64,000 nucleotides of DNA, taken from positions 450,208 through 514,207 of the forward strand of contig OZ246406.1 of the NCBI GenBank assembly GCA_965231045.1. The letters are read 5' to 3'. Below are positions 1,419 through 64,000 of this stretch, piece after piece (the stretch's first letter is position 1; each line of letters starts with the position of its first letter). The translations under genes were made by a program, and so were the position numbers. Under the pieces are notes generated by a model. The model made no database searches. It was not told the DNA's origin and saw only the letters and a list, made by a program, of their open reading frames with translations. Source of the stretch: an uncultured Candidatus Saccharibacteria bacterium. GTDB taxonomy: Bacteria; Patescibacteriota; Saccharimonadia; Saccharimonadales; JAGQNJ01.

Positions 1419-3242
1419 CTACTTGTTGAGGCGTTTGCGCTTGTTAGGATCGAGTTCTTTTTTGCGCAATCGCAGGTTTTTTGGTGTAACTTCCAGCACT
1501 TCGTCGTTTTCAATAAAGTCGATGCACTGCTCTAGGCTAAAAATAGTCGGTGGCGTTAGCTGCACCACACCATCACTACTTGAGCTACGCATGTTCGTCA
1601 GGTGCTTAGCCTTACAAACATTGATTTCCATATCGTCACCACGTTTGTTGAGCCCAATAATTTGACCGGCGTAAACCTTTTCGGCCGGACCAACAAAGCA
1701 GGTACCTCGTTCTTCGACATTCTGCAGAGCGTAGGGTGTCGTGGTGCCTGTTTCGAAGGCAATCAGCACACCGTTGCGAAGTTGCTGTAGGGGCGCGCCA
1801 AGCGGCTCGTAGCCAATCATCAGGCTATTCATGATAATCGTTCCCTTGGTGTTAGTCATCAGAATATTTCTAAGACCAAGTAGTGCCCGAGTTGGTAATT
1901 CATAGACTAGTTTAGTCACGCCTTTGGGGCTAGCAAATTGCTCTTTTAGATTAGCTCGGCGTGCACCAAGCTCTTGTTGGACCGTGCCGACGTGTTCGGC
2001 TGGCACTTCAATAATCAATTCTTCGATCGGCTCAACGGTTTGGCCATTTTCTTCTTTGGTCACAACTTGTGGACGGCCAACTTCAAACTCAAAGCCTTCG
2101 CGTCGCATAGTCTCAATTAGCACGCTTAAATGTAGTTCGCCACGGCCAGACACCAAAAAGCCAATGCCTTGCTCTTCGACGCGCAAGCCCACATTGGTTT
2201 CTAACTCTTTTTGCAGCCGATCGCCAATTTGTCGGCTAGTGTTAAACTCACCTTCTAAACCTTTGAATGGGGAAGTATTGGGGCCTAAATAAATCTTGAG
2301 AGTTGGTGCTTCGACTTCCAGCACTGGAAGTGCTTCAGGTTGATCAGCATCGGCAATCGTCTCGCCGATCTGAGCATTAGCCACACCCGTCAGTTGCACA
2401 ATATCGCCAGCCACACCTTCATCAACTTCAAACTTGCTCACGCCATGGCTCATGTAGACATTGTCGATCTTAGCTTTGGCCTGGGTGCCGTCTTTGAGGC
2501 ATAAAGTAACTTGGTCTCCACCTTTGACACGGCCACGAGTAATTCGCCCAATAGCATACTTGCCCTTAAAGCTATCCCACGCCAGAGCAGTAACAAGCAT
2601 CTGAAAAGGCTTGTCGAGTTCAATTTGCGGGGCAGGGATGTGCTCAACAATGGCTTCAAAAATCGGCTCTAGATCCCCTGCTGCTTCTGGATCACTAGGA
2701 ATTTCCTTCCAAGCTTTACCAGCCCGGCCAACCGCGTAATAAACAGGGTAGTGAAGCTGGTCTTCGTGCACAGCAAGCTCCAAAAACAGATCAGCTAACT
2801 CATCTTCGACTTCTTTGATACGTGATCCAGGCTTGTCGATTTTATTGATAATCACAATTGGTTTAAGCTCATTGGCTAGGGCCTTACCCAGCACAAACTT
2901 GGTTTGAGGCATCGGGCCTTCCTGGGCGTCGACGATTAAAATACTGCCATCGGCCATATTTAGTGTGCGCTCGACTTCCCCACTAAAATCCGCATGTCCT
3001 GGTGTGTCAACGATGTTAATTCGATAATCACCATGCTGCACTGCCGTAACTTTGGCAGTAATGGTAATTCCGCGTTCGCGCTCTTGGTCGCCACTGTCCA
3101 TAATGAGTTCTTGGCCCATTTCGGCTTGGTTATCACGAAACGTTTTGGATTGCTTCAATAGCCCATCAACCAAGGTAGTTTTACCATGGTCAACGTGCGC
3201 AATAATCGCAATGTTACGAATTTTGGTTGGATCTTGTTTCAT
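1419..3242 (-). CDS. typA: translational GTPase TypA/BipA
   Basis: 607 aa. G1 motif [26 protein letters not shown], and EF-G-like C-terminal domains. Confidence 0.92.
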
Positions 3243-3330: not shown

Positions 3331-4545
3331 TTAACGATCGATGAATGTTAGGGCATGGCCAACTTTGCCAGCTCGCCCAGCTCGACCAATACGGTGCACA
3401 TAGTCATCGTAAGTTTTTGGTGTCGAGTAGTTAATCACGTGGGTGACATCAATCACGTCAATACCACGCGCCGCTACATCAGTAGCTACCAAGATAGTCA
3501 CTTGGTTGTCTTTGAATCGCTTCAATGAGCGTTGGCGCTGACCTTGTGATTTACCACCATGAATTGCATCAGCCGAAAAGCCACGAGCAATCAGTTCATT
3601 GCTCAGGCTCTCGACACTTCGCTGCGTATCATCAAAGATAATTGCCTTGGCGATGTTCTGGTTAGTCAAAAGGTCATGCAAGTGCTCGATCTTTCGACCG
3701 CCGTTAATTCGTACGACATCTTGGTGAATATTCTCACCAGTTTCGCCAGTTTTTACAGAGATCATAACTGGATTGTTAGCAAACGTCTCAATCAACGATT
3801 TTACGCGTGCATCAAGTGTTGCCGAGAAAAACAACGATTGCCGCTTCTCAGATAGGTTGCTAAGAATACTGCGAACATCGTTCACAAAACCCATATCTAG
3901 CATACGGTCAACTTCGTCGAGGACGACGCAGTTAAAGTCGCGTAGTTGTAGGCTTCGGCGTTCAATATGGTCTTTGATACGGCCAGGTGTACCGATAACC
4001 ACTCGTGGGTTTCGGCGCAAATCGCTCAGTTGTCGGCCCATACCAGATCCACCGATTAATACAGCTCGACGCAAGTTACTGTCTTTGCTAAGCACATAAA
4101 ACTCTTCGTCGATTTGCTGAGCCAGCTCGCGTGTTGGTGCTACCACCAAAACTTTAGCGTTGTTGTTCATGATTGCCTGGATGGCTGGTACGGCAAAAGC
4201 GGCTGTCTTACCTGTTCCTGTATCGGCAATACCGATAATGTCGCGGCCAGCTAAAATCTCTGGAATTGCTTGATCCTGAATTGGCGAAGGCGTTGTAAAC
4301 CCTTTTCGCTCCAAGTTTCGAACCAATAGTTGATTTAGGCCAAAATCAGCAAACTGATGTTTGGCTTCATAGGTTGTCTGTTCTTTAGGTGTTGCCACCT
4401 TAACAAAACGGCTTGGATCAATGTAGTCTTTCTTAAGACCGCCGCGCCTTGGCGCACGATTTTGTGAAAATGACCGGCTCCGGCCACCGCCGTGATAGTT
4501 GCCGCCACTTCGGCGACCTGAATTAAAGTTTTTATTATAAGGCAT
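3331..4545 (-). CDS. DEAD-box ATP-dependent RNA helicase with RGG-rich N-terminus
   Basis: Q-motif GFTTPSPIQ, motif I ADTGTGKTAAF, motif II DEVD, SAT, and HRIGRAGRAG motif VI. Confidence 0.9.
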   Translation of the reverse strand: MPYNKNFNSGRRSGGNYHGGGRSRSFSQNRAPRRGGLKKDYIDPSRFVKVATPKEQTTYEAKHQFADFGLNQLLVRNLERKGFTTPSPIQDQAIPEILAGRDIIGIADTGTGKTAAFAVPAIQAIMNNNAKVLVVAPTRELAQQIDEEFYVLSKDSNLRRAVLIGGSGMGRQLSDLRRNPRVVIGTPGRIKDHIERRSLQLRDFNCVVLDEVDRMLDMGFVNDVRSILSNLSEKRQSLFFSATLDARVKSLIETFANNPVMISVKTGETGENIHQDVVRINGGRKIEHLHDLLTNQNIAKAIIFDDTQRSVESLSNELIARGFSADAIHGGKSQGQRQRSLKRFKDNQVTILVATDVAARGIDVIDVTHVINYSTPKTYDDYVHRIGRAGRAGKVGHALTFIDR

Positions 4546-4734
4546 TAAAATAACCCTTCGTTTTAGAGGCTTTCGCCCTTGATATTACTTCGATTGTGAT
4601 AATGAAATATCGAGTAATACGTCTAAAACAAACCCGGGTTCACTAATTACAATGTCCATATACATTAGCATTATTTTTAAGAGGTGTCAACAGTTTAGCC
4701 CCTACTTTCTTGTTTCTGCAAGAAAGCTAGCAAA

Positions 4735-4872
4735 GAACCGACAGGCGACTGGCTCGTATGATGCAACCACCTGTCAAAGCACACAACAGCCTCAGTAACT
4801 CGCTCCGCTCAGACATCCCTCGGCTTTATAGTTGTGCCTTTGCCGTGTTTGCTCAGCCTCCCCAGAGCCTGG
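4735..4872 (+). repeat. G+C-rich intergenic repeat, copy A (left flank of the R-M cassette)
   Basis: Collinear anchor blocks shared with copy B in inverted orientation: CAGGCGACT 4742-4750, ACTCGCTC 4798-4805, CAGAGCCTGG 4863-4872. It also shares blocks with the copies at 35453-35517, 32329-32420 and 26350-26518. Aligned by eye. Confidence 0.55.
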
Positions 4873-4906
4873 GAATATTACCTTACCTCTGATAGTATAA
4901 ATATCA

Positions 4907-7384
4907 ATGAGTAAAGAGGCTGCTGCTCGAATCAAAATCAATAAACTGCTTGAGGAAGCTGGTTGGGATTTTGATCAAAATATTAAGGTTGAGGCTGGCG
5001 TAAACATTAACGAAGTTGGTGATGATTACGAGCACAGTAAACATGGATTTATTGATTACTTACTGCTGGATGACAAGGGTTTCCCTCTTTTAGTTCTGGA
5101 GGCAAAAAAAGAAAGCAAAAGTCCGCTAGATGGTAAAGAGCAAGCAAGGAATTACGCAAGAAGCAATAAAGCCAGATTTATCATTCTAAGCAACGGTAAC
5201 CTGCATTACTTTTGGGATACAGAACATGGCACCGAAAAGTTAATCACTGACTTCCCTTCACAAAAATCATTACTTGATTTGCAGGATTACAAACCAGACC
5301 ACAAGACACTTGCCGGTGAGAAAGTTCAAGGAGATTACATTGCTCTCAGTCAAATGCCAAACTATGCTGAAGATCCAGACTGGCTGGCCGGAGGCCACAA
5401 GCAAGAAGCATTCAAAGATCGCCATGGCTTAAAGTTTATGCGCTACTACCAGCTCGATGCAATCCATGCCATCCAAGATGCTGCTAAAGAAGGTAAAGAG
5501 CGCTATCTGCTTGAGATGGCAACAGGTACTGGCAAAACTCTTACAACGATAGCAATCTGCAAACTATTTTTAAGAACTGGAAATGCCAGCCGAATACTAT
5601 TTTTGGTTGACCGTATAGAACTAGAGAAGCAAGCAGCTAAGGACTTTAAGGCAATCAAAAATGACTATTTGACTAGTGTTTACAAAGAAAATAAAGATGA
5701 TTGGCGCAAAGCAAATATAGTGATCTCCACAGTCCAGACGCTAATGGCCGGCGACCGATACAAAAAGGAATTTGACCCTACAGATTTTGATCTAGTAATT
5801 TCAGATGAAGCACACCGCTCCATCGGTGGCAACTCACGCAGTGTATTCGAATACTTCATTGGCTACAAACTTGGCTTAACTGCCACTCCAAAAGACTATC
5901 TAAAACATGTAGATACAAACAAAGAGAGTCAAAAGGACCAAGAGCGACGGCAGCTATTAGACACTTACAAAACCTTTGGTTGTGATAGTGGTGAGCCGAC
6001 ATATCGTTATGACCTAAAAAAGGGTGCCGCAGATGGCTTTTTGATTCAGCCAACAGTGGTCGATGCACGTACAGAGATAACTACCCAACTACTTAGTGAT
6101 GAAGGTTACGAAGTTGAACGCAAGAATGACGAAGGCGATATTGAAAAACAAGTTTACTTTAGTCGTCAATTTGAGCGTAAGTTCTTTAACGAAGATACGA
6201 ACGTTGCTTTCTGTAAGGCTTTTGTAGATAACGCGTTACGCGATCCAATTAGTCAGGAAGTTGGTAAAAGCCTTATTTTCTGTGTAACTCAAGACCATGC
6301 GCAAAAGATTACTCTAATACTAAATCAAATTGCCGACAAAAAATGGCCTGGAAAGTACAGTTCCGACTTTGCAATTCAAGTAAGTAGCAACGTAGACGCC
6401 GCACAAGAAATGACCACTAAGTTTAGCAACAACAACCTTAATGGCACAACTCGCTTTAAAGATGGCTACAAATCCAGCCGTACGCGAATTTGTGTAACGG
6501 TTGGGATGATGACAACTGGATACGACTGCCCTGACATTCTAAACGTTGCTTTTATGCGTCCTGTATTCAGCCCTGCAGATTTTATACAAATGAAAGGCCG
6601 TGGCACGCGAAGAGCCGTATTTAGCTACGAGGACGAAACCAAAGAAAAGTTTGAGGTTCCCAAAAAAGCCTTCAAGCTTTTTGACTTCTTCGCAGTATGT
6701 GAATACTTCGAGGAGAAGTTTAATTACGACGAGCAGCTTAAACTACCGCCAACCATTGGGCGCAAAAACGTTGATGAAGAAGAACGAACAGAACGCTACA
6801 TAACAGACGATTTGGAGCTTGGCAGACGCGACGATATCCAAACTATCAAAGAAGAGCAAATCGGTAATGAAGGCATGCGTGTGGACCGTGAAGTTTGGGG
6901 CGAAAAGGCGAAAGAAGCTATAGAAAAAGACCAAGAAATCTCTGAATTATACAAATCTGGCGATATTTATGGTGCCGAAAAGGCCGTGATAGAAAAACAC
7001 TTTGAAAAGCCAAAACTATACATCAGCCGTAGTAAGTTCAAACAAGCTTTCAAACTCGACCGTCGCCCGCATGTAAAAGAAATATTGGAATATGTGTTTG
7101 GTGATCGTGATAACTTTCAGTCAAAGGACGAAATTGTATCAGATGAATTCGAAAGCTTTGTGCAAAACGAAGGCATTACACCAGATCAATACAGTGCAGC
7201 ACGTGATGTATTTAGTGCATACACCACTGATCCACATGTACGTGAGCTGATTGACGAAGGTCGCTTTGCAGAGCTAGACTTCACAGGCCTCAAAATGGAC
7301 GACTGGATTAACCTAGCGCCTGAACTACGTAAACGCATTCCTGAATACGCCCGTGATTATGTTTTAGAAAAAGTTGCTGATTAA
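4907..7384 (+). CDS. hsdR: Type I restriction enzyme R subunit (HsdR-like, 825 aa)
   Basis: N-terminal PD-(D/E)xK HSDR_N-like region (IDYLLL...VLEAKK). Helicase motifs ATGTGKT, DEAH (VISDEAHRS), GLTATP, MKGRGTR. EcoEI_R_C-like C-terminus. Confidence 0.85.
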   Translation: MSKEAAARIKINKLLEEAGWDFDQNIKVEAGVNINEVGDDYEHSKHGFIDYLLLDDKGFPLLVLEAKKESKSPLDGKEQARNYARSNKARFIILSNGNLHYFWDTEHGTEKLITDFPSQKSLLDLQDYKPDHKTLAGEKVQGDYIALSQMPNYAEDPDWLAGGHKQEAFKDRHGLKFMRYYQLDAIHAIQDAAKEGKERYLLEMATGTGKTLTTIAICKLFLRTGNASRILFLVDRIELEKQAAKDFKAIKNDYLTSVYKENKDDWRKANIVISTVQTLMAGDRYKKEFDPTDFDLVISDEAHRSIGGNSRSVFEYFIGYKLGLTATPKDYLKHVDTNKESQKDQERRQLLDTYKTFGCDSGEPTYRYDLKKGAADGFLIQPTVVDARTEITTQLLSDEGYEVERKNDEGDIEKQVYFSRQFERKFFNEDTNVAFCKAFVDNALRDPISQEVGKSLIFCVTQDHAQKITLILNQIADKKWPGKYSSDFAIQVSSNVDAAQEMTTKFSNNNLNGTTRFKDGYKSSRTRICVTVGMMTTGYDCPDILNVAFMRPVFSPADFIQMKGRGTRRAVFSYEDETKEKFEVPKKAFKLFDFFAVCEYFEEKFNYDEQLKLPPTIGRKNVDEEERTERYITDDLELGRRDDIQTIKEEQIGNEGMRVDREVWGEKAKEAIEKDQEISELYKSGDIYGAEKAVIEKHFEKPKLYISRSKFKQAFKLDRRPHVKEILEYVFGDRDNFQSKDEIVSDEFESFVQNEGITPDQYSAARDVFSAYTTDPHVRELIDEGRFAELDFTGLKMDDWINLAPELRKRIPEYARDYVLEKVAD

Positions 7385-7746
7385 AAGAAGTCTGACGCTC
7401 TTTCTATGGCAATCTTATCAATTGTATTATCGTCATAATTCTGCGTGTGTGAAACTATAGTTAGCAAAACGATCTTGTCCCCACTTACTGCAAACCACAT
7501 GCGAGGCCATTGGCTAGGCCTTAAGCCAGAGCCTGGTACAGCCATTTCTACTTTCCAGAGTGACCAGATCGCATTTTGATGAATCCGATGAATTTTTCCT
7601 GGAGCAATTACTTCATCAGGACTTGTTGGATCAAATTGTTTTTCAAGTAGTCTCTCAACTGCGCTCAAACCAGCAGTCGTTCCGGGGTATTTCTTTACGA
7701 GTTGCTTGAGCTCCCCAGAGAACTGATCATGTCGCAGAAAATTCAT
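7381..7746 (-). CDS. putative RelE/ParE-superfamily-like toxin, partner of the Panacea antitoxin
   Basis: Start chosen at the internal Met (MNFLRHDQF...), which overlaps the upstream gene stop by 20 nt. The C-terminal pattern LWKVEM...RMWFAVSGDKIVLLTIVSH resembles the RelE/ParE core. Family assignment is tentative. Confidence 0.5.
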   Translation of the reverse strand: MNFLRHDQFSGELKQLVKKYPGTTAGLSAVERLLEKQFDPTSPDEVIAPGKIHRIHQNAIWSLWKVEMAVPGSGLRPSQWPRMWFAVSGDKIVLLTIVSHTQNYDDNTIDKIAIERASDFF

Positions 7747-8233
7747 TAAAATCAGTCCCTCTATAAAAAGCCAGGTCATATGGTATTTCTTCACTAAGCT
7801 TTGTACCAATGTAGGGTGCCTCAGCATGTGTCAAGTCTTCTAGTTGCTTCCCGTTCAAACCTCCATAGAGCTTTGAAACTCGTTGAAGAATAGCTATGTC
7901 GTCTTCATCAAACACTGACATATCAGGTTCAGCCGTGCAAGTATACGTCTCTGTTGGTTTATAACCAGGGACACCTTCTATGGCATCTATTCGCAATTTG
8001 CCTGCCTTTGCCATTTTTTGAACAACATTCGGCATATTCTCTGGGAAAGGACCCATGGGCAAGGCTTTATAGACGTCCCCTGTTAAGGTCTTCATCGATT
8101 CTTTGTATTCGTAGTGGTCAAAGTCAAGATAATAGAGAAGCTTAGCGAGTTTTTTCTTACCATGAAGAACTCCGCCCTGTTGTTTACAGAGGTATAGAAT
8201 CGCGTTCTCGTACTTATTCAATGCTACGGCCAT
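7727..8233 (-). CDS. Panacea/DUF4065 (SocA/GepA-like) antitoxin-domain protein
   Basis: 168 aa. KKLAKLLYYLDFDHYEYKESMKTLTGDVYKALPMGPFP is typical of DUF4065 (PanA) proteins. Confidence 0.7.
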   Translation of the reverse strand: MAVALNKYENAILYLCKQQGGVLHGKKKLAKLLYYLDFDHYEYKESMKTLTGDVYKALPMGPFPENMPNVVQKMAKAGKLRIDAIEGVPGYKPTETYTCTAEPDMSVFDEDDIAILQRVSKLYGGLNGKQLEDLTHAEAPYIGTKLSEEIPYDLAFYRGTDFNEFSAT

Positions 8234-8282
8234 AAAATTATTATAACAACAAACGCAATGTTTATCGACTGCTTATGCTTAA

Positions 8283-10871
8283 CTACTGACTCCAAACTTC
8301 GGAGATTTTGTCTTTTATTTTTTGCTCAAAAATGGTTATTAATTGACGATTTTGGTCGACTAATATATTTCTGAGCTCCATATAGTCTTTAGCAAGAATC
8401 CTTTGTTCGTCTATAGATGGCAACGGTATTTTTATTCTTTTCAATGCACCACCGTTAAACTGCGGTTGGGCTCCTCCTTGAACAAGTTGTCTTGCTTGCA
8501 TCCAATAATCTTGGCACTGTGCATATGCCCAGTAAAATTCTGGTAATATTTTGGATACATCAAAATTTAATCTAATTAAGAACGATGCGAATACCGCTGG
8601 CTCGTTGTCTGTATAGATAGCAGTTTTACCATAAGTCGCCCCAGTTCGTGCAACGAGCACATCATTTTGATGTAATAAGTATTTTTCAGCCTCTGCGGTT
8701 AGGTTAATGTACTTCGCACCATCTTTTTTGACTGAACCCATGTCGTCAATATCTGTAATACGCACAAGCCTCGCCGACCCCTTATCTTTAGCGCTAGCTG
8801 TAAAGCCGTATTCGATACTTGCTACTTCATTAAGCTCAAACTTAGGCCAAGATGGTTTAACCACAATGTTCATCCCTTTAACTTGAGACATCTCTTTGGC
8901 TAAATCGATGATTTTTTGGTAGCTGTCGAGCTCGGCAACAATTTCTTTCTGCAGCTCAATCGGTGGTAGTGGTATTTCAAGATTTTTTATTGAGGTTGAA
9001 TTTATGCTGGCCTGGTTAACGGCTCTTTGTGCAAATCTCTTTGCATCATCTGTAAACAAATCCGACTTAAATACGTATAAAGCGTACTCCGGGATTATTT
9101 TTGATGTATCAGGCCGTAGCCTAAGTAGGTTCGAACCATGTATAACTTTCTCTTTACTTTCAAAGAGTGCAGTCTTAGCTAAATGATCAATGCTGTTTAT
9201 ATGGCTGAAAAGAATATCGCCTTTTTGTAGATAATCATTCTCATTCACGTCATCAGTAGACCATTTAACTGCATCTAGATTTACAATACCTTTTGCGATT
9301 GTTTGTATTCTAGACACTTTGTGACCTATAGGTTCGTCAGTTTGTTTAACGTTTTTGCCATTTTTAATTTCTATAAAAATGTCGCTGAGTTTAGATCTTG
9401 GCCATTTTTGATTTTGACTTGTTTCTGATACCAAGTACCGCGAAGCTGTTAGGTTGTAATCGCCACTCTCAGCAATTTTGTCTCGGCTCACCGCAACTAT
9501 CTCGATTTGATCTACTTCTGCTGGTGAACCAATTATATCCGGACCCCCAACGGTACTTAGTCCAATGGTAAATAAACCAGATTTTTTGAGTTCGTCTTTG
9601 ATAGTTTGTATATCAGTTTTTGGTTCTTTTCTGTATCTTTGTAGTATCTCAGCAGTCAGCGGCAAGTCGTTATGTGCTATTGGACGACGCTGTGCACCAA
9701 GGTCAAAACCGTCGTGCTCAATTTTTGCAAAAATAATGTCTTTGGATTGTTTTGCTCTGCTGTTATCAAAGATTAAGATACTGGTCTTAACACCTGCATA
9801 CGGGTTAAAGACGCCGGCAGGGAGCGAAATAACCGCAAGTAGGCCATCTTCAACTAAGTTTTTGCGTAATTGCTTGTATGCTTTGCCGCTTTGAAAAATA
9901 ATGCCTTCGGGCACAATAATGCCAGCCCGGCCGTTTTGCTTGAGGTGGCTCATGATGTAGTCAACAAACAAAACTTCTGCACGAGAAGATTCAACACCAA
10001 ACTTATTGTGTGGGCGAATCCCACCCTTTGGTGACATAAAGGGCGGATTGGCCAAAATAATATCAAAGGTATCACCCCAACGCTCTTCACTTGTTAAGCT
10101 GTCATACTCGTAAATCTGCGGGTCATTATTTCCATGCAGGTACATATTGACTCGAGCAAGTTTAACCATGTCGCTACTTATGTCGTAACCTTCTAGGTTG
10201 CTCATGAGTTTTTGCTTTTCTTGATGAGTCAGTGACTTTTCGTTATTTTTTTTACCATTTTCATCAACACCGTCATGCTTTTCAACAATATGCTTATAGG
10301 CACTGATAAGGAAGCCCGCCGTGCCGCAAGCTGGATCCAAAATAGTGTCGTCCTTATCTGGATCCAGCACCTTTACAATGAAGTCAATAATGTGACGAGG
10401 TGTACGGAACTGCCCCGCATCGCCCTGTGAACCCATAATGCTGAGCAAGTACTCGAAAGCATTGCCAAGTTCTTCGCTGTGATTGTAGTCAAAAAACTCA
10501 ATTTCTTTTAGGAACAAGTTGAGCGTTTCTGGGTCTCGGTACGGCAAAAAAGCTTGACGGAATATATCACGAAACAATTGCGGTAACTGTGCGGCCGTAC
10601 TAAACTTTTCCAACGCTTCTGTATACATATTCAAGCGCTCTTGCGAGCCACTGCGTGGGTCCATGAGTTTGCGCCATGCATACTTTTCTAGATCACCAGT
10701 AAAGAAAGAGGCTTTTCCGCCAGCATCTTTGGCCTTGATATCCATATCATCCATGAACTTATATATAAGTGCGTTGGTGATTTGATCTATCTGCTGCTTT
10801 GGATCTGGGACCTTACCAACTAGAACCTGCCTAGCACTATCAATATGTCTTTTTGTATCAGCTGTAAGCAT
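8283..10871 (-). CDS. Type I R-M fused methyltransferase-specificity protein (HsdM-HsdS fusion, 862 aa)
   Basis: N-terminal HsdM_N-like region. AdoMet motif DPACGTAGFL and catalytic NPPF (ILANPPFMSP). The C-terminal ~400 aa holds two TRD/conserved-helix units (…IPLPPIELQKEIV… and …IPLPSIDEQRILA…) typical of HsdS. Confidence 0.85.
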   Translation of the reverse strand: MLTADTKRHIDSARQVLVGKVPDPKQQIDQITNALIYKFMDDMDIKAKDAGGKASFFTGDLEKYAWRKLMDPRSGSQERLNMYTEALEKFSTAAQLPQLFRDIFRQAFLPYRDPETLNLFLKEIEFFDYNHSEELGNAFEYLLSIMGSQGDAGQFRTPRHIIDFIVKVLDPDKDDTILDPACGTAGFLISAYKHIVEKHDGVDENGKKNNEKSLTHQEKQKLMSNLEGYDISSDMVKLARVNMYLHGNNDPQIYEYDSLTSEERWGDTFDIILANPPFMSPKGGIRPHNKFGVESSRAEVLFVDYIMSHLKQNGRAGIIVPEGIIFQSGKAYKQLRKNLVEDGLLAVISLPAGVFNPYAGVKTSILIFDNSRAKQSKDIIFAKIEHDGFDLGAQRRPIAHNDLPLTAEILQRYRKEPKTDIQTIKDELKKSGLFTIGLSTVGGPDIIGSPAEVDQIEIVAVSRDKIAESGDYNLTASRYLVSETSQNQKWPRSKLSDIFIEIKNGKNVKQTDEPIGHKVSRIQTIAKGIVNLDAVKWSTDDVNENDYLQKGDILFSHINSIDHLAKTALFESKEKVIHGSNLLRLRPDTSKIIPEYALYVFKSDLFTDDAKRFAQRAVNQASINSTSIKNLEIPLPPIELQKEIVAELDSYQKIIDLAKEMSQVKGMNIVVKPSWPKFELNEVASIEYGFTASAKDKGSARLVRITDIDDMGSVKKDGAKYINLTAEAEKYLLHQNDVLVARTGATYGKTAIYTDNEPAVFASFLIRLNFDVSKILPEFYWAYAQCQDYWMQARQLVQGGAQPQFNGGALKRIKIPLPSIDEQRILAKDYMELRNILVDQNRQLITIFEQKIKDKISEVWSQ

Positions 10872-10945
10872 TAACCCCTCTCTGTTTCTGGTTTTATTTT
10901 ACACCTGGTAACAGATCAGGGGTGTTGTGATTTTTATTCAGTTAA

Positions 10946-11080
10946 CCAGGCTCTGCAGGCTCCTGATGATGTGAGTGTCAAAGCGACCTTTTGAGCGAGT
11001 GCGTGGAGCTTGCGGCAACGCCGAGCATGGTCGCGCTTGGCAGCGAACTCATAAAGAGCCGTAAGTCGCCTGCGGCGTTT
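10946..11080 (-). repeat. G+C-rich intergenic repeat, copy B (right flank of the R-M cassette, inverted relative to copy A)
   Basis: CCAGGCTCTG 10946-10955, GAGCGAGT 10993-11000 and AGTCGCCTG 11064-11072 are reverse complements of the copy-A anchor blocks, in the same order and with similar spacing. Confidence 0.55.
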
Positions 11081-11122
11081 TTGATACTTTTGCCGCTGTT
11101 GGTAAAAGTATGAAGCAAAAGG

Positions 11123-11989
11123 TTATTTGCAATAATCACTGGTCTTGCCACTGGCTTGGTCAGCAGCAGGGAGTGACTTAACAATCGCGGCATCTTTACT
11201 TGGAAGCATATCGAACCAACAAACTGCAAATCCAGCCTGGCTAAGTTCGTTTTGGTGTTTGCTCACAAATGATGCATTTTTTGAAGCTTCGTTTGGTTGT
11301 CTGAGATCATATACTCCAAAGTCAAACGCTGTGTTTTTTGGCGATGAATTTTTAAAACCGACTGCCGTAGCCACAACATCTCCTGCTTTTACTGAAATTG
11401 GCTTATCAAATGGAGTTGTTCTAGAATCGTCTTGTTTTGCAGCAGGTAATTTATCTGCCTGTTCCTGGAATGTTGGAGCTAATGTAAGCAAGTGATCGAA
11501 TCTATATGAAATGCCGCAAGCATTTGTAAAGCGCAGCATGTACTGCACCTCACCCTGCTCAATATATCTGCTACCTTCAACCAATTGCGCATCCATAACA
11601 GCGCTGACTTTCACATCGCTATTGTTGAGGCCATCGAATCTAAGACCGCCATGAGGTTTGTAGTTACCGCCACGTGTTTGGCCTGGGTATAGAACTGCAG
11701 TAGCCTTACTAACATCAGCTGGTGAATTATTAAAGACTAGTGGGTTCGGGCAAGTTGGTGGTGTGTCACTTGGTTGCCACTTTGAGCCATCAAACTGCCA
11801 ATCCACGTTTGTGGACGCCGATGAAGCAGATTGTGATGAACTTTGTGAAGTTTGATTACTACTCGTCGGTTTTTTACTAAACACTCGCCAGCCAACAAAG
11901 CCAACGACCGCCAATATAACAACTATTAACAATATTAAAAGAACGTGAGCTATTCCATTTTGATCTTTACGCATATGCTTATTATACAC
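11123..11989 (-). CDS. membrane-anchored extracytoplasmic protein, function unknown
   Basis: 288 aa. N-terminal TM (VLLILLIVVILAVVGFVGW) followed by a Ser/Gln-rich linker. No catalytic motif recognised. Confidence 0.55.
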   Translation of the reverse strand: MYNKHMRKDQNGIAHVLLILLIVVILAVVGFVGWRVFSKKPTSSNQTSQSSSQSASSASTNVDWQFDGSKWQPSDTPPTCPNPLVFNNSPADVSKATAVLYPGQTRGGNYKPHGGLRFDGLNNSDVKVSAVMDAQLVEGSRYIEQGEVQYMLRFTNACGISYRFDHLLTLAPTFQEQADKLPAAKQDDSRTTPFDKPISVKAGDVVATAVGFKNSSPKNTAFDFGVYDLRQPNEASKNASFVSKHQNELSQAGFAVCWFDMLPSKDAAIVKSLPAADQASGKTSDYCK

Positions 11990-12065: not shown

Positions 12066-12347
12066 CTACTGGGATTGTTTCCAGGGCTGGAGTTGCATCT
12101 CGATAACTAGACGATCATATACTGCCTGAGTATCCAGCTCGCACCCAGCCGCCTCTTGATCATCCAAGAACTTATCCATGCCCTCGGCTAGTTGATCTTC
12201 AACGGTCATTATTTGCAGCAGATCATTTGCGTCAAGGGCCTCAATAGCAACTTCAGTGTCCTGCATCATGAGTTGAGCTAACGCCGCGAAGCGCGCGTCA
12301 CATGCTTCGCGTTTCGGGCCTTCACACTCTATGCATCTCTCAACCAT
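12066..12347 (-). CDS. hypothetical acidic protein (93 aa)
   Basis: ORF co-oriented with and 19 nt downstream of 12367-13089. Confidence 0.45.
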   Translation of the reverse strand: MVERCIECEGPKREACDARFAALAQLMMQDTEVAIEALDANDLLQIMTVEDQLAEGMDKFLDDQEAAGCELDTQAVYDRLVIEMQLQPWKQSQ

Positions 12348-13197: not shown

Positions 13198-13845
13198 TTA
13201 TTTTTCGATTTCAAGAAGTTGAACATCAATAACTAGCACGGCATTTGGCGGCACAGGGTCCTGACCCTTTGAACCATAACCAACAGCCGGAGGGATAATT
13301 AAGCGCCGAATACCCCCGACTTTCATACCACCAACACCTTGTTCCCAGCCGGGTATAACTTGGTGTGCCCCATATGTAAACACAAACGGCACGATCTTGT
13401 TATCTTTATCAACCCGGTTCTGGTCAATTAGTTTGCCATCTGTTAGGTATACCTTATAAATAACGGCGGCTTTTTTATTGACCTTAATTTCATCGCCAGT
13501 GCCTGGCTGAAGATCTTGATAGAGTGCGTTCTTTTCACCCTTGTACTTATCAAACTGAGCAAAAGTCTCTGGCCCTGGCGCACTAGACTTACTAGATGAA
13601 CTCGATCCGCCAGATTGATCGGTGTTGCCTTCTATTCCACCCCCAAGTCCACTATTGCCAGATACGCTCAGGCTACTGCCGCTCTGGTCAGAATCTAGTG
13701 GAATGGCCTGGGCAACATTCGACTCACCCTTAACGGCTATTTGTTTAGGTTTCTGTTGGTTATGCCAAACTGCGTAACCAATAATGCCAGCTGTAATGAC
13801 TGTGAAGCCCCCTAAAACTAATCCGGCCTTTATCCCTGCGCGCAT
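13198..13845 (-). CDS. FKBP-type peptidyl-prolyl cis-trans isomerase, membrane anchored
   Basis: N-terminal TM. C-terminal FKBP core FVFTYGAHQVIPGWEQGVGGMKVGGIRRLIIPPAVGYG. Confidence 0.85.
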   Translation of the reverse strand: MRAGIKAGLVLGGFTVITAGIIGYAVWHNQQKPKQIAVKGESNVAQAIPLDSDQSGSSLSVSGNSGLGGGIEGNTDQSGGSSSSSKSSAPGPETFAQFDKYKGEKNALYQDLQPGTGDEIKVNKKAAVIYKVYLTDGKLIDQNRVDKDNKIVPFVFTYGAHQVIPGWEQGVGGMKVGGIRRLIIPPAVGYGSKGQDPVPPNAVLVIDVQLLEIEK

Positions 13846-19968: not shown

Positions 19969-20381
19969 TGGTGGAGCTGCCGAGTACTGCCCTCGGGTCC
20001 GTCAGTTTATCTTTGTTAGTCTTCTACAGGTTTAGTCTATCTAAGTGTCTTAGGAGTATGTCTCAAGATAGACAGAAAAACATATTCCGCAGACTCTAAA
20101 GTCTTGGCACTAATAAGGAGTCAACTTATCAATGGGCATCCAGAAAATATGACATGCGTATTGAAATATCTGGCGTCATTCAAAGCACGGCTCCGGTAAT
20201 TAAACTGAAGCTGTTACGGTCTGAAGCTGTAGACCTGTAAATGCGTTAGCAAATACAGAAGCTACGCTCTTCAAACCGCGAGTAATAGCGTTTGCAATTA
20301 CTGGGTTTTGCCTATAACGCTGACAAGCGACCTGCAAGATCTAACTGATAAAGTCCAACGTCGAGCTTAAAATTCAGCCCC
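19969..20381 (-). ncRNA. ssrA: tmRNA (SsrA), 413 nt
   Basis: 5' GGGGCUGAAUUUUAAGCUCGACG and 3' CCGAG-GGCAGUA-CUCGG-CAGCUCC-A-CCA. The acceptor pairs GGGGCUG/CAGCUCC with the G3:U Ala identity pair. Candidate resume context UAAUU-GCA-AAC-GCU resembles E. coli UAGUC-GCA-AAC-GAC. Confidence 0.88.
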
Positions 20382-20425
20382 GTAACCGTTATTATACCAT
20401 AAAAACTATGATTTTTGCAATATGC

Positions 20426-32238: not shown

Positions 32239-32324
32239 ACTTTTCTATTCTTCTTATGCTTCAGTGTACCACAGTTCTCAGTTACTTTGGACCGCCAAAG
32301 TAACCAAAACTCTTGGGCTAACGT

Positions 32325-32425
32325 TTTTTCTTTATGAAGCCTCTGCTCAAGCCTGACAACAGCCTCGAGAACTCACGTTGTTCAAACAACTCTCGACTAA
32401 TGGTTGTCAGTTTGAAGAGCTTACA
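32325..32425 (+). repeat. G+C-rich intergenic repeat, copy E (inside the 322-nt pgk-tpiA spacer)
   Basis: TATGA 32333-32337, ACAACAGCCTC 32356-32366 (identical to 4783-4793), AACTC, and TAATGGTTGTCAGTTTG (compare TATAGTTGTGCCTTTG in copy A) are collinear with copy A. Confidence 0.5.
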
Positions 32426-32560
32426 AAGGAAAAAGCCGATGCCAAAACTTGCAAATGACCATTCTTTACAAAATTGCATGGAACGAGTTCTTAGTTTTAA
32501 CAGGGTCCAGCGTAGTGCTGGCGAAGCCAAAGCGCACTGTTAAAACTATAGTAGGAGTGG

Positions 32561-43033: not shown

Positions 43034-44511
43034 AGAGTATGCCCCTTGCTAAGATCCATATTTGAAGCCTCGCGTCGTATAGCTATAGCCGTCCCAGCCT
43101 TATTTATTCCATAATTTATTCCTACAATACAAAGAACAGTCTTAACACTCGGAGCCAATGCGGCTCCAGGAATACCAGTATTAGTATATACATCCGCTAG
43201 TAGCACAACTGGTATAGCAATAAGGGATGAGTATAGTGCCTCTGATTCAGCAATTTCTGAATACTTTTTACTAAGTGCATGCTTATCCAGTCCATTAGCA
43301 CCCCAGACAGTGTTAATTCGTGTATTTTCTTTTAACCTATTCCTAGCCCTATTACCTAAGGCTGCTGCCGCAAGCAATGATGCGACCGTCATTGCCTGAA
43401 GAACCAACGGGTTAACACTGTTTTCACCTGTTTCTTTACTATTCTGTACGAATTTATCAACAGGAACAACAAATGCACGATCTGTTAGAGTGTCTGGGGA
43501 AAGCCCTTGCTCAGCCAAAAGTTTTTGAATCTCAGTTTTTTGACCTTGTGCAAGTATTAGAGAATATGGCTGATCTGGGGTATTTCTAACACAGCGTGCA
43601 AAATCTTCATTATTAAATAGTACAGGTAGTAGGTTTAACCCACTTTTCTCCTCAATAACATTATTAACAGTTAAAGTCAGCCCATCCATAGTAAAGGTTT
43701 CACCCTTTTTGACGCCAAGCTCTTTTGCAACATCTACAGAAATTTCTTTACATTCTTTATCAGCAAGTGGAATTTGTGTTGTTTCACTTGGCAAACTACC
43801 TGTAAGTAGTTGGATTTTTGTCCCTTCTTCACCCTTACGCTGGCCAGAATGCCACTCCCAGGTTCCTGGCACTGCCGTTATATTATGCTCTTTGGCATGT
43901 GCTAAAAATCCATTTGCTCTATTAATTGAAATACTAGTGTTATTAGCTAATTCTGGTACTGGAGTATTAGATATAACATAATTTCCAATATTATCACTTG
44001 GTCTTTCCGCCCCAAGTATATTCGCGAAATAATCAGCAACTTTTGCTTGTGAACTACTTACTTCGTGAGCAGTATCAACAAAATTACCTATCATTGCACC
44101 CGTACCTACAACGATCAAGCTTGCTTGTGCGACCCTTCTACCAACCGAACCTCTTGACTGATTTCTGGCATGAGCCATTTCATGTATAGCTTGATCCTCA
44201 GAGCTAAACGCCCGCCTAATATGCCCGACGCCCCTCTTAACAAGTAATCCAGCTCCTAAAATTGCTCCGCCTTCCACAGCTAAATTAAAAGCATTTGCTA
44301 GCCCATCAGATGGGCTAACTGAATCGCTCGCAGTGCTGACTATAGGGCTGTCAAGATTTGTGTTTTCGTGCGTAACAACACCCACTCCTGCAGCCACACC
44401 TCCGAGCATAATTAAACCCGTAGCAACTTGTCCAAATTTTCGCCTTAAAGCATTGTTATATTCAGATTGAGACCCAGATTCAGCACCACCAATTTTAGCT
44501 AGTTCAGACAT
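43030..44511 (-). CDS. FtsX/MacB-like ABC permease with large extracytoplasmic domain
   Basis: N-terminal TM, an ~300-aa extracytoplasmic region, and C-terminal TM cluster. ATGA coupling to the ATPase gene. Confidence 0.6.
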   Translation of the reverse strand: MSELAKIGGAESGSQSEYNNALRRKFGQVATGLIMLGGVAAGVGVVTHENTNLDSPIVSTASDSVSPSDGLANAFNLAVEGGAILGAGLLVKRGVGHIRRAFSSEDQAIHEMAHARNQSRGSVGRRVAQASLIVVGTGAMIGNFVDTAHEVSSSQAKVADYFANILGAERPSDNIGNYVISNTPVPELANNTSISINRANGFLAHAKEHNITAVPGTWEWHSGQRKGEEGTKIQLLTGSLPSETTQIPLADKECKEISVDVAKELGVKKGETFTMDGLTLTVNNVIEEKSGLNLLPVLFNNEDFARCVRNTPDQPYSLILAQGQKTEIQKLLAEQGLSPDTLTDRAFVVPVDKFVQNSKETGENSVNPLVLQAMTVASLLAAAALGNRARNRLKENTRINTVWGANGLDKHALSKKYSEIAESEALYSSLIAIPVVLLADVYTNTGIPGAALAPSVKTVLCIVGINYGINKAGTAIAIRREASNMDLSKGHTL

Positions 44512-62728: not shown

Positions 62729-64000
62729 ATGGAAACATCTAATCAGAAGATTGGTCACTTAATTTACCAGATACGACAAGAGAGAGGCTTAACCCAAGCC
62801 GACTTTGCCAGACAACTGGGCACGAGCCAATCTGCAGTTAATCGAATTGAGCACGGGCGACAAAATATGAGTATTGAAATGCTCGGCCGTATTAGCGATG
62901 TGCTTAATAAACCACTAATCAGCATTAGTAGCGGAGCCGTTAATCTACGTATTGAAGGTGGTCGTGAACTCAGCGGTGAAATTACCCTTAAAACTTCCAA
63001 GAACGCAACCGTTGCCTTGCTTTGTGCCAGTTTACTTAACAAAGGTACTACCAAGCTCAAGAAAGTTCCGCGAATCGAGGAAGTAAATCGTATCATCGAA
63101 GTTCTGAAAAGTATCGATGTATCGGTTAGATGGCTTCCAAACAACACGCTAGAAATTAAGCCGCCAACCAAATTTGATCTAGAAAAAATGGATAAAAACG
63201 CGGCTCGCAAAACAAGAACTGTGATCATGTTTATCGGTCCATTAATGCACCACTTGAAACGATTTCAAATTCCGTATGCCGGTGGTTGTGAACTAGGTCG
63301 GCGAACTGTACTGCCACATTTGTATGCACTAGAAGAATTTGGCGCCGAAGTTTTGACTAAATCTGGTCACTATAACGTCATAGTTAATAAACAACAGCCG
63401 AAGCGCGATGTAATTCTATATGAATCAGGTGATACAACTACAGAAAATGCCTTGATGGCTGCCGCAGGCTTTGAAGGCGAAACAATTATAAAAATGGCCA
63501 GTGCTAACTATATGGTTCAGGACCTATGTTTCTTCCTTAAAAAACTTGGTGTCAAAATTGACGGTATTGGCACAACTACGTTGCGTGTTCGTGGGGTTAA
63601 TAACATAAAGAAAAATGTCACCTACTCGCCTTCTGAAGATCCGGTAGAAGCCATGACATTTGTTGCGGCGGCTATAACAACGGATTCTCAGGTTACTATT
63701 CGACGTGTGCCGATTGATTTTATGGAGCTTGAATTATTAAAGCTTGAAAAAATGGGTCTTAAGTATGCCCATGGCCAAAAGTACAAAGCTGATAACGGAC
63801 AAACCGATCTTGTTGATCTGACAATCCACAAACATCACGGCGAGTTGGTAGCTGCCCAAGAAAAAATCTACGGGCGTCCCTTCCCAGGTGTAAATATCGA
63901 CCATGTTCCTTACTTTGTACCGATTGCAGCTATAGCCAAAGGGCGTACTTTGATTCATGACTGGGTATATGAAGATCGAGCTTTGATGTACACCGAGATG
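62729..64000 (+). CDS. murA: UDP-N-acetylglucosamine 1-carboxyvinyltransferase with N-terminal XRE-type HTH fusion (3' end cut by window edge)
   Basis: Not in the ORF track because it runs off the window. My translation is METSNQKIGHLIYQIRQERGLTQADFARQLGTSQSAVNRIEHGRQNMSIEML (HTH), then LRIEGGRELSGEITLKTSKNATVALLCASLL...PYAGGCELGRR (catalytic Cys loop). Confidence 0.8.
   Translation, partial: METSNQKIGHLIYQIRQERGLTQADFARQLGTSQSAVNRIEHGRQNMSIEMLGRISDVLNKPLISISSGAVNLRIEGGRELSGEITLKTSKNATVALLCASLLNKGTTKLKKVPRIEEVNRIIEVLKSIDVSVRWLPNNTLEIKPPTKFDLEKMDKNAARKTRTVIMFIGPLMHHLKRFQIPYAGGCELGRRTVLPHLYALEEFGAEVLTKSGHYNVIVNKQQPKRDVILYESGDTTTENALMAAAGFEGETIIKMASANYMVQDLCFFLKKLGVKIDGIGTTTLRVRGVNNIKKNVTYSPSEDPVEAMTFVAAAITTDSQVTIRRVPIDFMELELLKLEKMGLKYAHGQKYKADNGQTDLVDLTIHKHHGELVAAQEKIYGRPFPGVNIDHVPYFVPIAAIAKGRTLIHDWVYEDRALMYTEM

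Follow-up and report, generated by a model that had tools for sequence, protein, structure and literature searches.

The Correia elements of Neisseria and the enterobacterial repetitive intergenic consensus (ERIC) and repeat unit (RU) sequences are intergenic repeats of 100–200 nt with the potential to form long hairpins, which are present in some strains and absent from others and may act as terminators or promoters. Copies of a MITE (miniature inverted-repeat transposable element) within a genome are usually more than 80% alike, with defined terminal inverted repeats and target-site duplications, and can be traced to an insertion sequence (IS) family. In the pdif modules of Acinetobacter plasmids, inversely oriented XerC/D sites, which are 28-bp double-strand sites with a fixed 6-nt centre, surround gene modules. 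Genomes of Saccharibacteria are about 1 Mb in size with very short spacers, so that structured inserts of 170–400 nt stand out in them, and to our knowledge defence-gene turnover in these epibionts is poorly understood. Bacterial MITEs with regulatory side-effects have been reviewed (PMC3184786), and bacterial interspersed mosaic elements (BIMEs) appear in one account as paired palindromic units in alternating orientation (PMC2817692). Here we analyse a 64-kb stretch of a Candidatus Saccharibacteria chromosome (contig OZ246406.1; hereafter the window), a compactly spaced segment in which a cassette of Type I restriction-modification (R-M) and toxin-antitoxin (TA) genes lies between the gene orf288 and a DEAD-box helicase gene, flanked by two intergenic elements, A on the helicase side and B on the orf288 side. 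The evidence supports well that A and B belong, in eroded form, to a lineage-restricted family of intergenic repeats in Saccharibacteria that are bipartite and palindromic. The literature searched contains no description of such repeats in Saccharibacteria or Patescibacteria, and we regard the family as previously undescribed, its nearest known kinds being repetitive extragenic palindromes (REPs) and BIMEs, and bacterial MITEs. Relatives of the window were read as short pieces and are referred to by contig labels (L093, L181, L095, L184 and so on).

The layout of a unit is constant: a small hairpin, a spacer and a long imperfect hairpin with a G+C-rich base, together about 165–200 nt. The small hairpin has 9–13 bp, a loop of 4–12 nt, a T-rich 5' arm and an A-rich 3' arm; the spacer occurs as CAAAAC, CAAAGAAC or CGAAAAAC; and the long hairpin spans 126–162 nt with 37–59 bp. 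Eleven full units with these three parts were found at non-homologous loci, three in the window (A, B and C) and eight in relatives. Eight of the eleven come from within about 100 kb of DNA from the window's own clade, and 2.16 Mb of sampled Saccharibacteria DNA held only these ~11 full units and no further copies.

Element A (4702–4872, + strand) consists of a small hairpin at 4702–4730 (CTACTTTCTTG..CAAGAAAGCTAG), the spacer CAAAGAACCGA at 4731–4741 and a long hairpin at 4742–4871 on a CAGGC/GCCTG base. It points towards hsdR, with 11 nt separating its small hairpin from the helicase gene's −35-like TTGACA. Profiles built without A matched it at E=3e-9 (from C, e1 and e2 only) and E=8e-7, and an ortholog, A', is present in the sister strain L093 (9265–9436, 90.7% identical). 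Element B (10946–11111, − strand) has its small hairpin at 11084–11111 (ATACTTTT..AAAAGTAT), beginning 12 nt past the orf288 stop codon, the spacer CAAAAACGCCG at 11073–11083 and a long hairpin at 10947–11072, again on CAGGC/GCCTG; it points towards hsdMS and is the most diverged member. Element C (32281–32443, + strand), in the spacer between pgk and tpiA, has a small hairpin at 32281–32304, the spacer CAAAACTCTTG at 32305–32315 and a long hairpin at 32316–32443. An nhmmer search of the window with A matched this third long spacer at 32333–32424 with E=5e-4. A possible shortened partner of C follows at 32452–32546 (− strand), as a hairpin GTTTTAACAG..CTGTTAAAAC plus TAAGAAC and ..ATGGTCA, a weakly supported assignment, made by eye against D1 of L095. 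Besides A', L093 carries e1 beside the orf288 homolog and e2 between the genes for Fic and TM2 proteins. Relatives fetched through triosephosphate isomerase, L095 and L184, have an inverted pair, D1 and D2, in the pgk–tpiA spacer, D2 being orthologous to C. Among more distant Saccharibacteria, L035 and L127 each have a single unit, and L163 has a version with a short stem.

On folding, A, B and C each form one long imperfect hairpin in which the outer anchor words, on which the first-pass annotation of this DNA had based its repeat, pair with each other. Stems differ in sequence yet stay paired (TTACTTTGG/CCAAAGTAA, GTCACTTTG/CAAAGTGAC and CTTCCTTTTTT/AAAAAAGGAAG), and the z-score of the fold against shuffled sequence is −3 to −7 for most members and −4 to −6.4 for C. 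Non-orthologous copies are 53–70% identical. The 70% is reached, with long shared blocks, by e2 from the helicase site of L093 and D1 from the pgk–tpiA site of L095, so that related copies sit at non-homologous loci. A MAFFT alignment of ten full units is poor in the hairpin interior, where we claim no column-wise covariation counts, and a home-made descriptor (hairpin, A-tract and long rod) was uninformative, returning 170 matches yet missing known members. Rfam 15 gave no match at E<=5 in 4400–11400 and none over L093 or L095; its only gathering-score matches in the window were three tRNAs and tmRNA. We also considered a reading of the units as small ORFs, with ATG-started frames of 46, 24 and 69 codons at the aligned TATGA, and rejected it, as the peptides are not conserved and no Shine–Dalgarno (SD) sequence precedes them.

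The first-pass annotation had proposed A and B as diverged inverted repeats of about 135 bp sharing three anchors in mirror order. These anchors are exact (CAGGCGACT at 4742–4750, ACTCGCTC at 4798–4805 and CAGAGCCTGG at 4863–4872, with reverse complements at 11064–11072, 10993–11000 and 10946–10955, respectively), and so are the distances of 35 nt to the hsdR ATG and 75 nt to the hsdMS ATG. Alignment of A with B, on the other hand, is not significant: nhmmer gave one 44-nt piece at E=16, and BLASTN only chance-level 9–10-mers, dozens of which occur in the window. Smith–Waterman local alignment of A with the reverse complement of B gave p=0.03, and the global score had z ~3.9 with end points picked post hoc around the anchors. 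A collinear chain of three exact anchors totalling 27 nt is reached by 12 of 20000 dinucleotide shuffles, a statistic weakened by the equal 27-nt chain that the B spacer makes with an unrelated coding region (43261–43487). Judged by pairwise evidence alone, then, the repeat would be given up on the annotation's own terms, and it is the comparison with the family that rescues it. Only at the level of the family does a relationship of A and B emerge, and the true units extend beyond the 135 bp proposed, each with an outer small hairpin. A third exact copy of CCAGGCTCTG lies inside a small ORF of the cassette (7527–7536, − strand) with no element architecture around it; with up to one mismatch this 10-mer occurs eight times in the window against 2.6 expected.

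The membership of B was examined with models of different construction. A profile from C, e1 and e2 only placed B at E=2e-3, with nothing else apart from A below E=7; a profile of the 5' module built without B gave E=3e-3; and a covariance model, R1 (A, A', C, e1 and e2), found B as its best non-training match, at full length (10940–11111, − strand, 13.8 bits, E=0.14). B could instead be a G+C-rich spacer sharing three short words with A by chance, the real family being A, C and relatives. The lack of a significant pairwise alignment and the equal three-anchor chain with coding sequence agree with chance, as do the E=0.8 given to B by a broader, noisier 7-member profile, its absence from the list of a 6-member profile without window elements (e1, e2, D1, D2, L035 and L127) and its fold z of only −1.8. 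Against this, three models built in different ways all rank B first among the loci outside their training sets, at full length and in the orientation set by its small hairpin. It shows the complete layout (10-bp hairpin, CAAAAAC spacer and 126-nt hairpin with 39 bp), and its place and orientation are those of e1, a clear member, in the sister strain, where the first half of the B small hairpin is still present at the same junction. Moreover, the outer 39 nt of B are identical at 33 of 39 positions to a repeated hairpin module in an unrelated contig, L194, found with a pattern that came from e1. B thus very probably belongs to the family, and a chance resemblance appears distinctly improbable.

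The exact-pattern scans of viral contigs that reached L194 gave 0 and 9 matches, of which eight look like chance and one, L194, is a real module match. L194 (IMGVR_UViG_3300007961_000281; 65% GC) has phage capsid, DUF859 and endolysin-like genes beside metN/nlpA. Its module, a 12-bp hairpin (GGTTACTTTGCC..GGCAAAGTAACC) followed by CAAAAC, GCCGC and a second hairpin, occurs in at least five copies (1555–1620, 9667–9733, 12241–12307 and 13265–13331 on the + strand; 10339–10406 on the − strand), and in the copy that matches the end of B the 33 of 39 positions include the loop. The capsid gene of this contig is enclosed by 412-nt inverted repeats (9996–10407 and 13270–13681).

The DNA between orf288 and the helicase gene is a hotspot, as defined by two strain types. 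The sister strain L093 (Logan SRR12487046), of about 90% nucleotide identity, was recovered through a cluster representative of the helicase at 99% identity. L093 and L181 carry entirely different cargo between the same flanking genes (the flanks of L093 being 89–93% identical to those of the window): a small ORF with a Fic gene, a TM2 gene, a gene for an NmeDI_C-domain protein, three unknown genes and a CxxCxxCC gene, and none of the hsdR, TA and hsdMS genes. Homology followed inwards from orf288 stops inside the small hairpin of B (junction J1, 11086–11092), after ..CAGCGGCAAA at ~11089; L093 keeps this half hairpin and then continues with a complete element of its own, e1. Homology is regained at the 3' end of the long hairpin of A or no more than a few nucleotides away from it (J2, 4872–4873; ..CCAGGCTCTGG on the other strand). 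A third junction (J3, 4691–4701) lies between the outer end of the A small hairpin and the helicase −35; here L093 has a 418-bp segment with the CxxCxxCC gene, beyond which homology resumes at TTGACA, taken to be the −35 of the helicase gene. In each of the two strains an inverted pair, its small hairpins on the outside, encloses the variable segment (B..A and e1..A'). A is conserved in L093 like flanking DNA, B is replaced there by another family member, and so the pair does not move as one unit. The suggestion that the cassette is bounded by inverted copies of a mobile or recombinogenic repeat is accordingly borne out as regards different cargo within the same flanks and breaks at the element edges, and fails in that the cassette and its two repeats do not form a single transferable unit.

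The hotspot edge takes a third form in L094 (helicase 83% identical at the amino acid level), which is without hairpin units. Upstream of its helicase promoter (147–386 and 589–729) lie a 79-aa GIY-YIG gene, a 46-aa ORF and then a canonical hairpin-plus-T6 terminator, which takes the position of A directly upstream of a conserved TTGACC-17-TAATGT. Empty-site comparison through the helicase in species-representative genomes reached nearest relatives of only 69–71% amino acid identity, without synteny, in which no empty site was readable, and exact look-ups of the helicase and BipA returned only 100%-identical contigs. We also examined whether the elements travel with the R-M cassette, and rejected this: the nearest hsdMS homologs (57–60% amino acid identity; L178 and L180) lie in M-S/X/R cassettes with tight flanking spacers of 38–51 nt and no family match. 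To judge from these sequences, the units are evidently not part of the R-M system. In the window as in the homologous cassettes, hsdR is convergent with a fused M-S gene, and the position between them is variable (window 4907–10871, L178 223–6687, L180 10001–16464): it is taken by a Panacea TA pair in the window, by a reverse transcriptase (RVT_1) gene in L178 and by the gene for an unknown protein of 474 aa in L180.

At the pgk–tpiA junction, presence/absence polymorphism was observed at orthologous sites. The spacer is 8–65 nt long in about 60 relatives (38–61 nt in L096, L097 and L182), 322 nt in the window, where it holds C and its possible shortened partner, and 472 nt in L095 and L184, where D1 and D2 lie with their long-hairpin ends abutting and without cargo. 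L183 and L185, 95–98% identical to L184, lack 194 nt within the D1/D2 pair, the deletion being bounded by two copies of CGCCGCAA (L183 5534–5900 and L185 251–620, compared with L184 3277–3840 and L095 5600–6130), a sign that the pair decays through microhomology and was not excised. Comparison of occupied with empty pgk–tpiA sites shows no visible target-site duplication, at flanks (~75% nucleotide identity) too diverged for a firm verdict. The spacer between the UvrD and G5 genes is occupied by a unit in L127 and by the short version in L163, the two being oppositely oriented. Small structured inserts seem to have arrived repeatedly at the pgk–tpiA junction. Several more distantly related Saccharibacteria have this spacer lengthened by a conserved hairpin motif of another kind (..TTCTCATCGCGC..hairpin..GGCTGCTCTTTTCCC; L116 2567–2712, L102 9165–9309, L108 3004–3145, L143 326–500, L136 9819–10001 and L103 4049–4224), upstream of which L136 and L103 have a duplicated tpiA 5' end.

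Such findings might be accounted for by a cargo-carrying non-autonomous transposon spanning B to A, with A and B as structured terminal inverted repeats of ~170 bp and D1/D2 as its MITE. Inverted pairs with small hairpins outermost do recur in the window, in L093 and, cargo-less, in L095 and L184; insertion sites are occupied or empty among relatives; and related copies sit at different loci. However, the two ends of a pair resemble each other no more than arbitrary members do (A–B 65% and D1–D2 61%, by lenient alignment), B is replaced between strains while A is kept like the flank, and solo units exist (L127, L163, L035 and e2). In addition, no target-site duplication is visible, no transposase was found with Pfam in the window ORFs, and the sole rearrangement caught among near-identical strains is the microhomology deletion. 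We consider a transposon of this kind unlikely.

The units could alternatively be folded single-strand recombination sites, analogous to the attC sites of integrons, at which some recombinase captures cassettes. They resemble such sites as long imperfect hairpins of variable sequence with a conserved base and a small asymmetric internal loop, of which one strand folds better. L093 contains a direct array (e1-Fic-e2-TM2), a gene end lies 6–64 nt upstream of the unit in 6/11 cases, the breakpoints fall at hairpin ends, and the cargo (TA, R-M and small unknown genes) is typical of integron cassettes. By eye, however, no RYYYAAC/GTTRRRY core sites are found at the hairpin base: neither the bases (CAGGC/GCCTG, CCGGC/GCCGG, CCGGGC/GCCCGG and CTGGGT/ACCCAG) nor the 3' flanks (GGAATA, GTTAAC and ATCAAA among them) fit attC. 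Unlike in an attC array, A is inverted relative to B, e1 and e2; the multi-gene cargo has its own promoters; and units occur singly between housekeeping genes (pgk–tpiA and UvrD–G5). No integrase was found in the 64-kb window or the 21-kb sister locus, and no recombinase or transposase domain among the 50 window ORFs scanned with Pfam or among the genes called in 21 kb of L081, L090 and L093. Integron-type sites are thus a very improbable explanation. That the units are recombination sites of an unrecognised cassette-capture system of the Candidate Phyla Radiation (CPR), attC-analogous but with other core sequences and a different, unlinked recombinase, is a long shot. If it were true, small-genome epibionts would swap defence and TA modules at fixed intergenic docks, and the near-identical small-hairpin module of L194, a prophage-bearing contig of 65% GC, would suggest exchange reaching outside the phylum.

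On one strand of every unit, the G+C-rich base is followed by a GAG(G)-like linker of 3–6 nt and by TTTT(T)G leading into the T-rich arm of the small hairpin. This strand, which reads long hairpin, T-run and small hairpin, is the more stable one in 8 of the 11 units and has 62 G-U pairs against 29 on the other. For A and B, its terminator-like sense points out of the cassette. A terminator scanner flagged only the terminal sub-hairpin of B (11058–11076 plus GTTTTTGATA).

The first-pass annotation had offered, as its second reading, that both operons use a duplicated promoter or leader, a 5' regulatory element that would coordinate hsdR with the hsdMS-TA operon. Read from small to long hairpin, the four cargo-adjacent units do all point into the next cargo gene (hsdR lies 35 nt from A, hsdMS 75 nt from B, Fic ~185 nt from e1 and TM2 ~75 nt from e2). 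Nevertheless, no gene lies downstream, in this sense, of C, of A' in L093, or of D1 and D2, the leader-sense strand folds worse, with half the G-U pairs, and homologous R-M cassettes do without the element. No sigma-70-like promoter scored in either spacer; by reading of the sequence, each cargo gene has its own −10-like or SD-like sequence between element and ATG. A shared leader, therefore, finds no support and can be regarded as highly improbable.

The best explanation, to which we assign a probability of about 0.55, is that A and B are decayed structured repeats, REP/BIME- or MITE-like, that border a strain-variable defence islet and may act as terminators or insulators while being prone to recombination. 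The islet lies between the end of orf288 and the promoter of the DEAD-box helicase gene, with an inverted pair at its borders in both strains compared. Read outwards from the cargo, each unit presents a G+C-based hairpin followed by a T-rich run and would on that account stop or attenuate transcription leaving the islet. The convergent 3' ends of hsdR (+) and the small ORF (−) share 4 nt (7381–7384), and nothing resembling a terminator lies between hsdR and the operon opposing it. Antisense read-through over the full length of the cassette is hence possible, and transcripts running on from either operon would meet the far unit just before the neighbouring host gene, so that A and B would each catch what reads through from the opposing operon of the cargo. 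Being long palindromes on the edge of the islet, the units would also be the places where cargo is gained, lost or replaced. We put at about even the odds that the units are outward-facing terminator or insulator hairpins that also make the islet edges recombination-prone. This role is inferred; family membership, unit architecture, cargo polymorphism and breakpoints at the element edges are observed.

Several observations weigh against this explanation. The support for B is marginal and model-dependent (E=2e-3, 3e-3, 0.14 or 0.8), and A (z ~−1) and B (z ~−1.8) are the most eroded members, folding no better than shuffled sequence. The fold z is similar on both strands, as expected of a DNA palindrome without an RNA role, and an intrinsic terminator would ideally not have the linker of 3–6 nt between hairpin base and T-run. 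Taken in the terminator orientation, 5/11 units (C, A', D2, L035 and L127) have a co-directional gene end just upstream, compared with 6/11 in the other orientation, so that no orientation rule relative to host genes emerges. No target-site duplication, autonomous copy or near-identical copies were found, which leaves presence/absence as the only ground for mobility. Finally, breakpoints at the element edges would also arise from exchange of the islet by homologous recombination in the flanks.

As for the genes of the locus, a Pfam scan identified BipA (1419–3242, −) and the DEAD-box helicase (3331–4545, −), whose closest relatives, at 69–71% amino acid identity, are found only in Saccharibacteria/Patescibacteria. 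The cargo starts with hsdR (4907–7384, +; 825 aa), a Type I restriction subunit with Pfam ResIII, HSDR_N and SWI2_SNF2 matches. On the opposite strand, a fused hsdM-hsdS gene (8283–10871, −; 862 aa; N6_Mtase and two Methylase_S stretches) is accompanied by an antitoxin-like gene with a SocA/Panacea domain (7727–8233, −; 168 aa; PF13274, E=2.9e-16). Downstream of the latter lies the small ORF (7381–7827, −), taken from the ORF list and the L081 gene calls and called as 132 aa at 7381–7779; it has no Pfam match and is a candidate toxin partner of the Panacea gene. The unannotatable orf288 (11123–11989, −) is not on record and has zero relatives in JGI metagenomes. Cassette GC is 0.41–0.42, with 0.38 at third codon positions, and background genes have 0.438±0.026 and 0.382; in this composition test cassette and background are the same, giving no sign of foreign origin. 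The apparent long spacer at 20100–20425 is explained by the tmRNA gene (19969–20381, −; Rfam RF00023, 62 bits), and three other long spacers by tRNA-Glu, tRNA-Lys and tRNA-Arg. The apparent 508-nt gap at 63229–63736 reads as + strand coding sequence, probably of a gene leaving the window end, and is not an intergenic element.

Members of the repeat family lie at the edges of a strain-variable defence islet and of other spacers prone to insertion, and the profile or covariance model of the family may thus serve as a handle for variable regions in metagenome-assembled genomes of the CPR. With it one can also ask if the hairpins shield core genes from acquired operons, and test for a dedicated mechanism of recombination. 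Should the units be only decaying palindromic repeats, they would still be a modest addition to the catalogue of bacterial intergenic repeats.

Among known systems, REPs and BIMEs are similarly extragenic palindromes between genes, arranged as pairs in alternating orientation, as B/A, e1/A' and D1/D2 are inverted here. Their sequence likewise decays while the hairpin is kept, and they have been proposed as terminators, mRNA stabilisers and protein-binding sites. However, REPs are 20–40 nt long, present in hundreds of copies, have a conserved GTAG foot and are linked to REP-associated tyrosine transposases (RAYTs), whereas the units here are bipartite, 165–200 nt long and of low copy number (three in 64 kb), and no RAYT or Y1 transposase domain was found in the scanned window ORFs. 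With MITEs the units share size, intergenic position, presence or absence between strains and long-hairpin potential (fold z −3 to −7 in most copies); they differ in being 53–70% alike, in lacking a visible duplication and a parent IS, and in the asymmetry that the outer small hairpin confers. Integron attC sites are imperfect hairpins of similar length, conserved in structure and not in sequence, with one strand folding better, and located between small adaptive genes (TA and R-M), but the present units have no RYYYAAC/GTTRRRY boxes and no intI, lie in mixed orientations around multi-gene cargo with promoters and occur as single copies between housekeeping genes. As in pdif modules, accessory modules that include TA genes lie between inverted short palindromes and differ among similar backbones. 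The outer palindromes here, in contrast, have loops of 4–12 nt and co-varying arms, which argues that they behave as hairpins and not as fixed recombinase sites, and a hairpin of 125–160 nt follows. Lastly, the locus resembles defence-island hotspots in that the same core pair, the orf288 homolog and the DEAD-box helicase, holds different defence or TA cargo in sister strains; such hotspots are usually described without dedicated boundary repeats, whereas here both borders carry one structured family.

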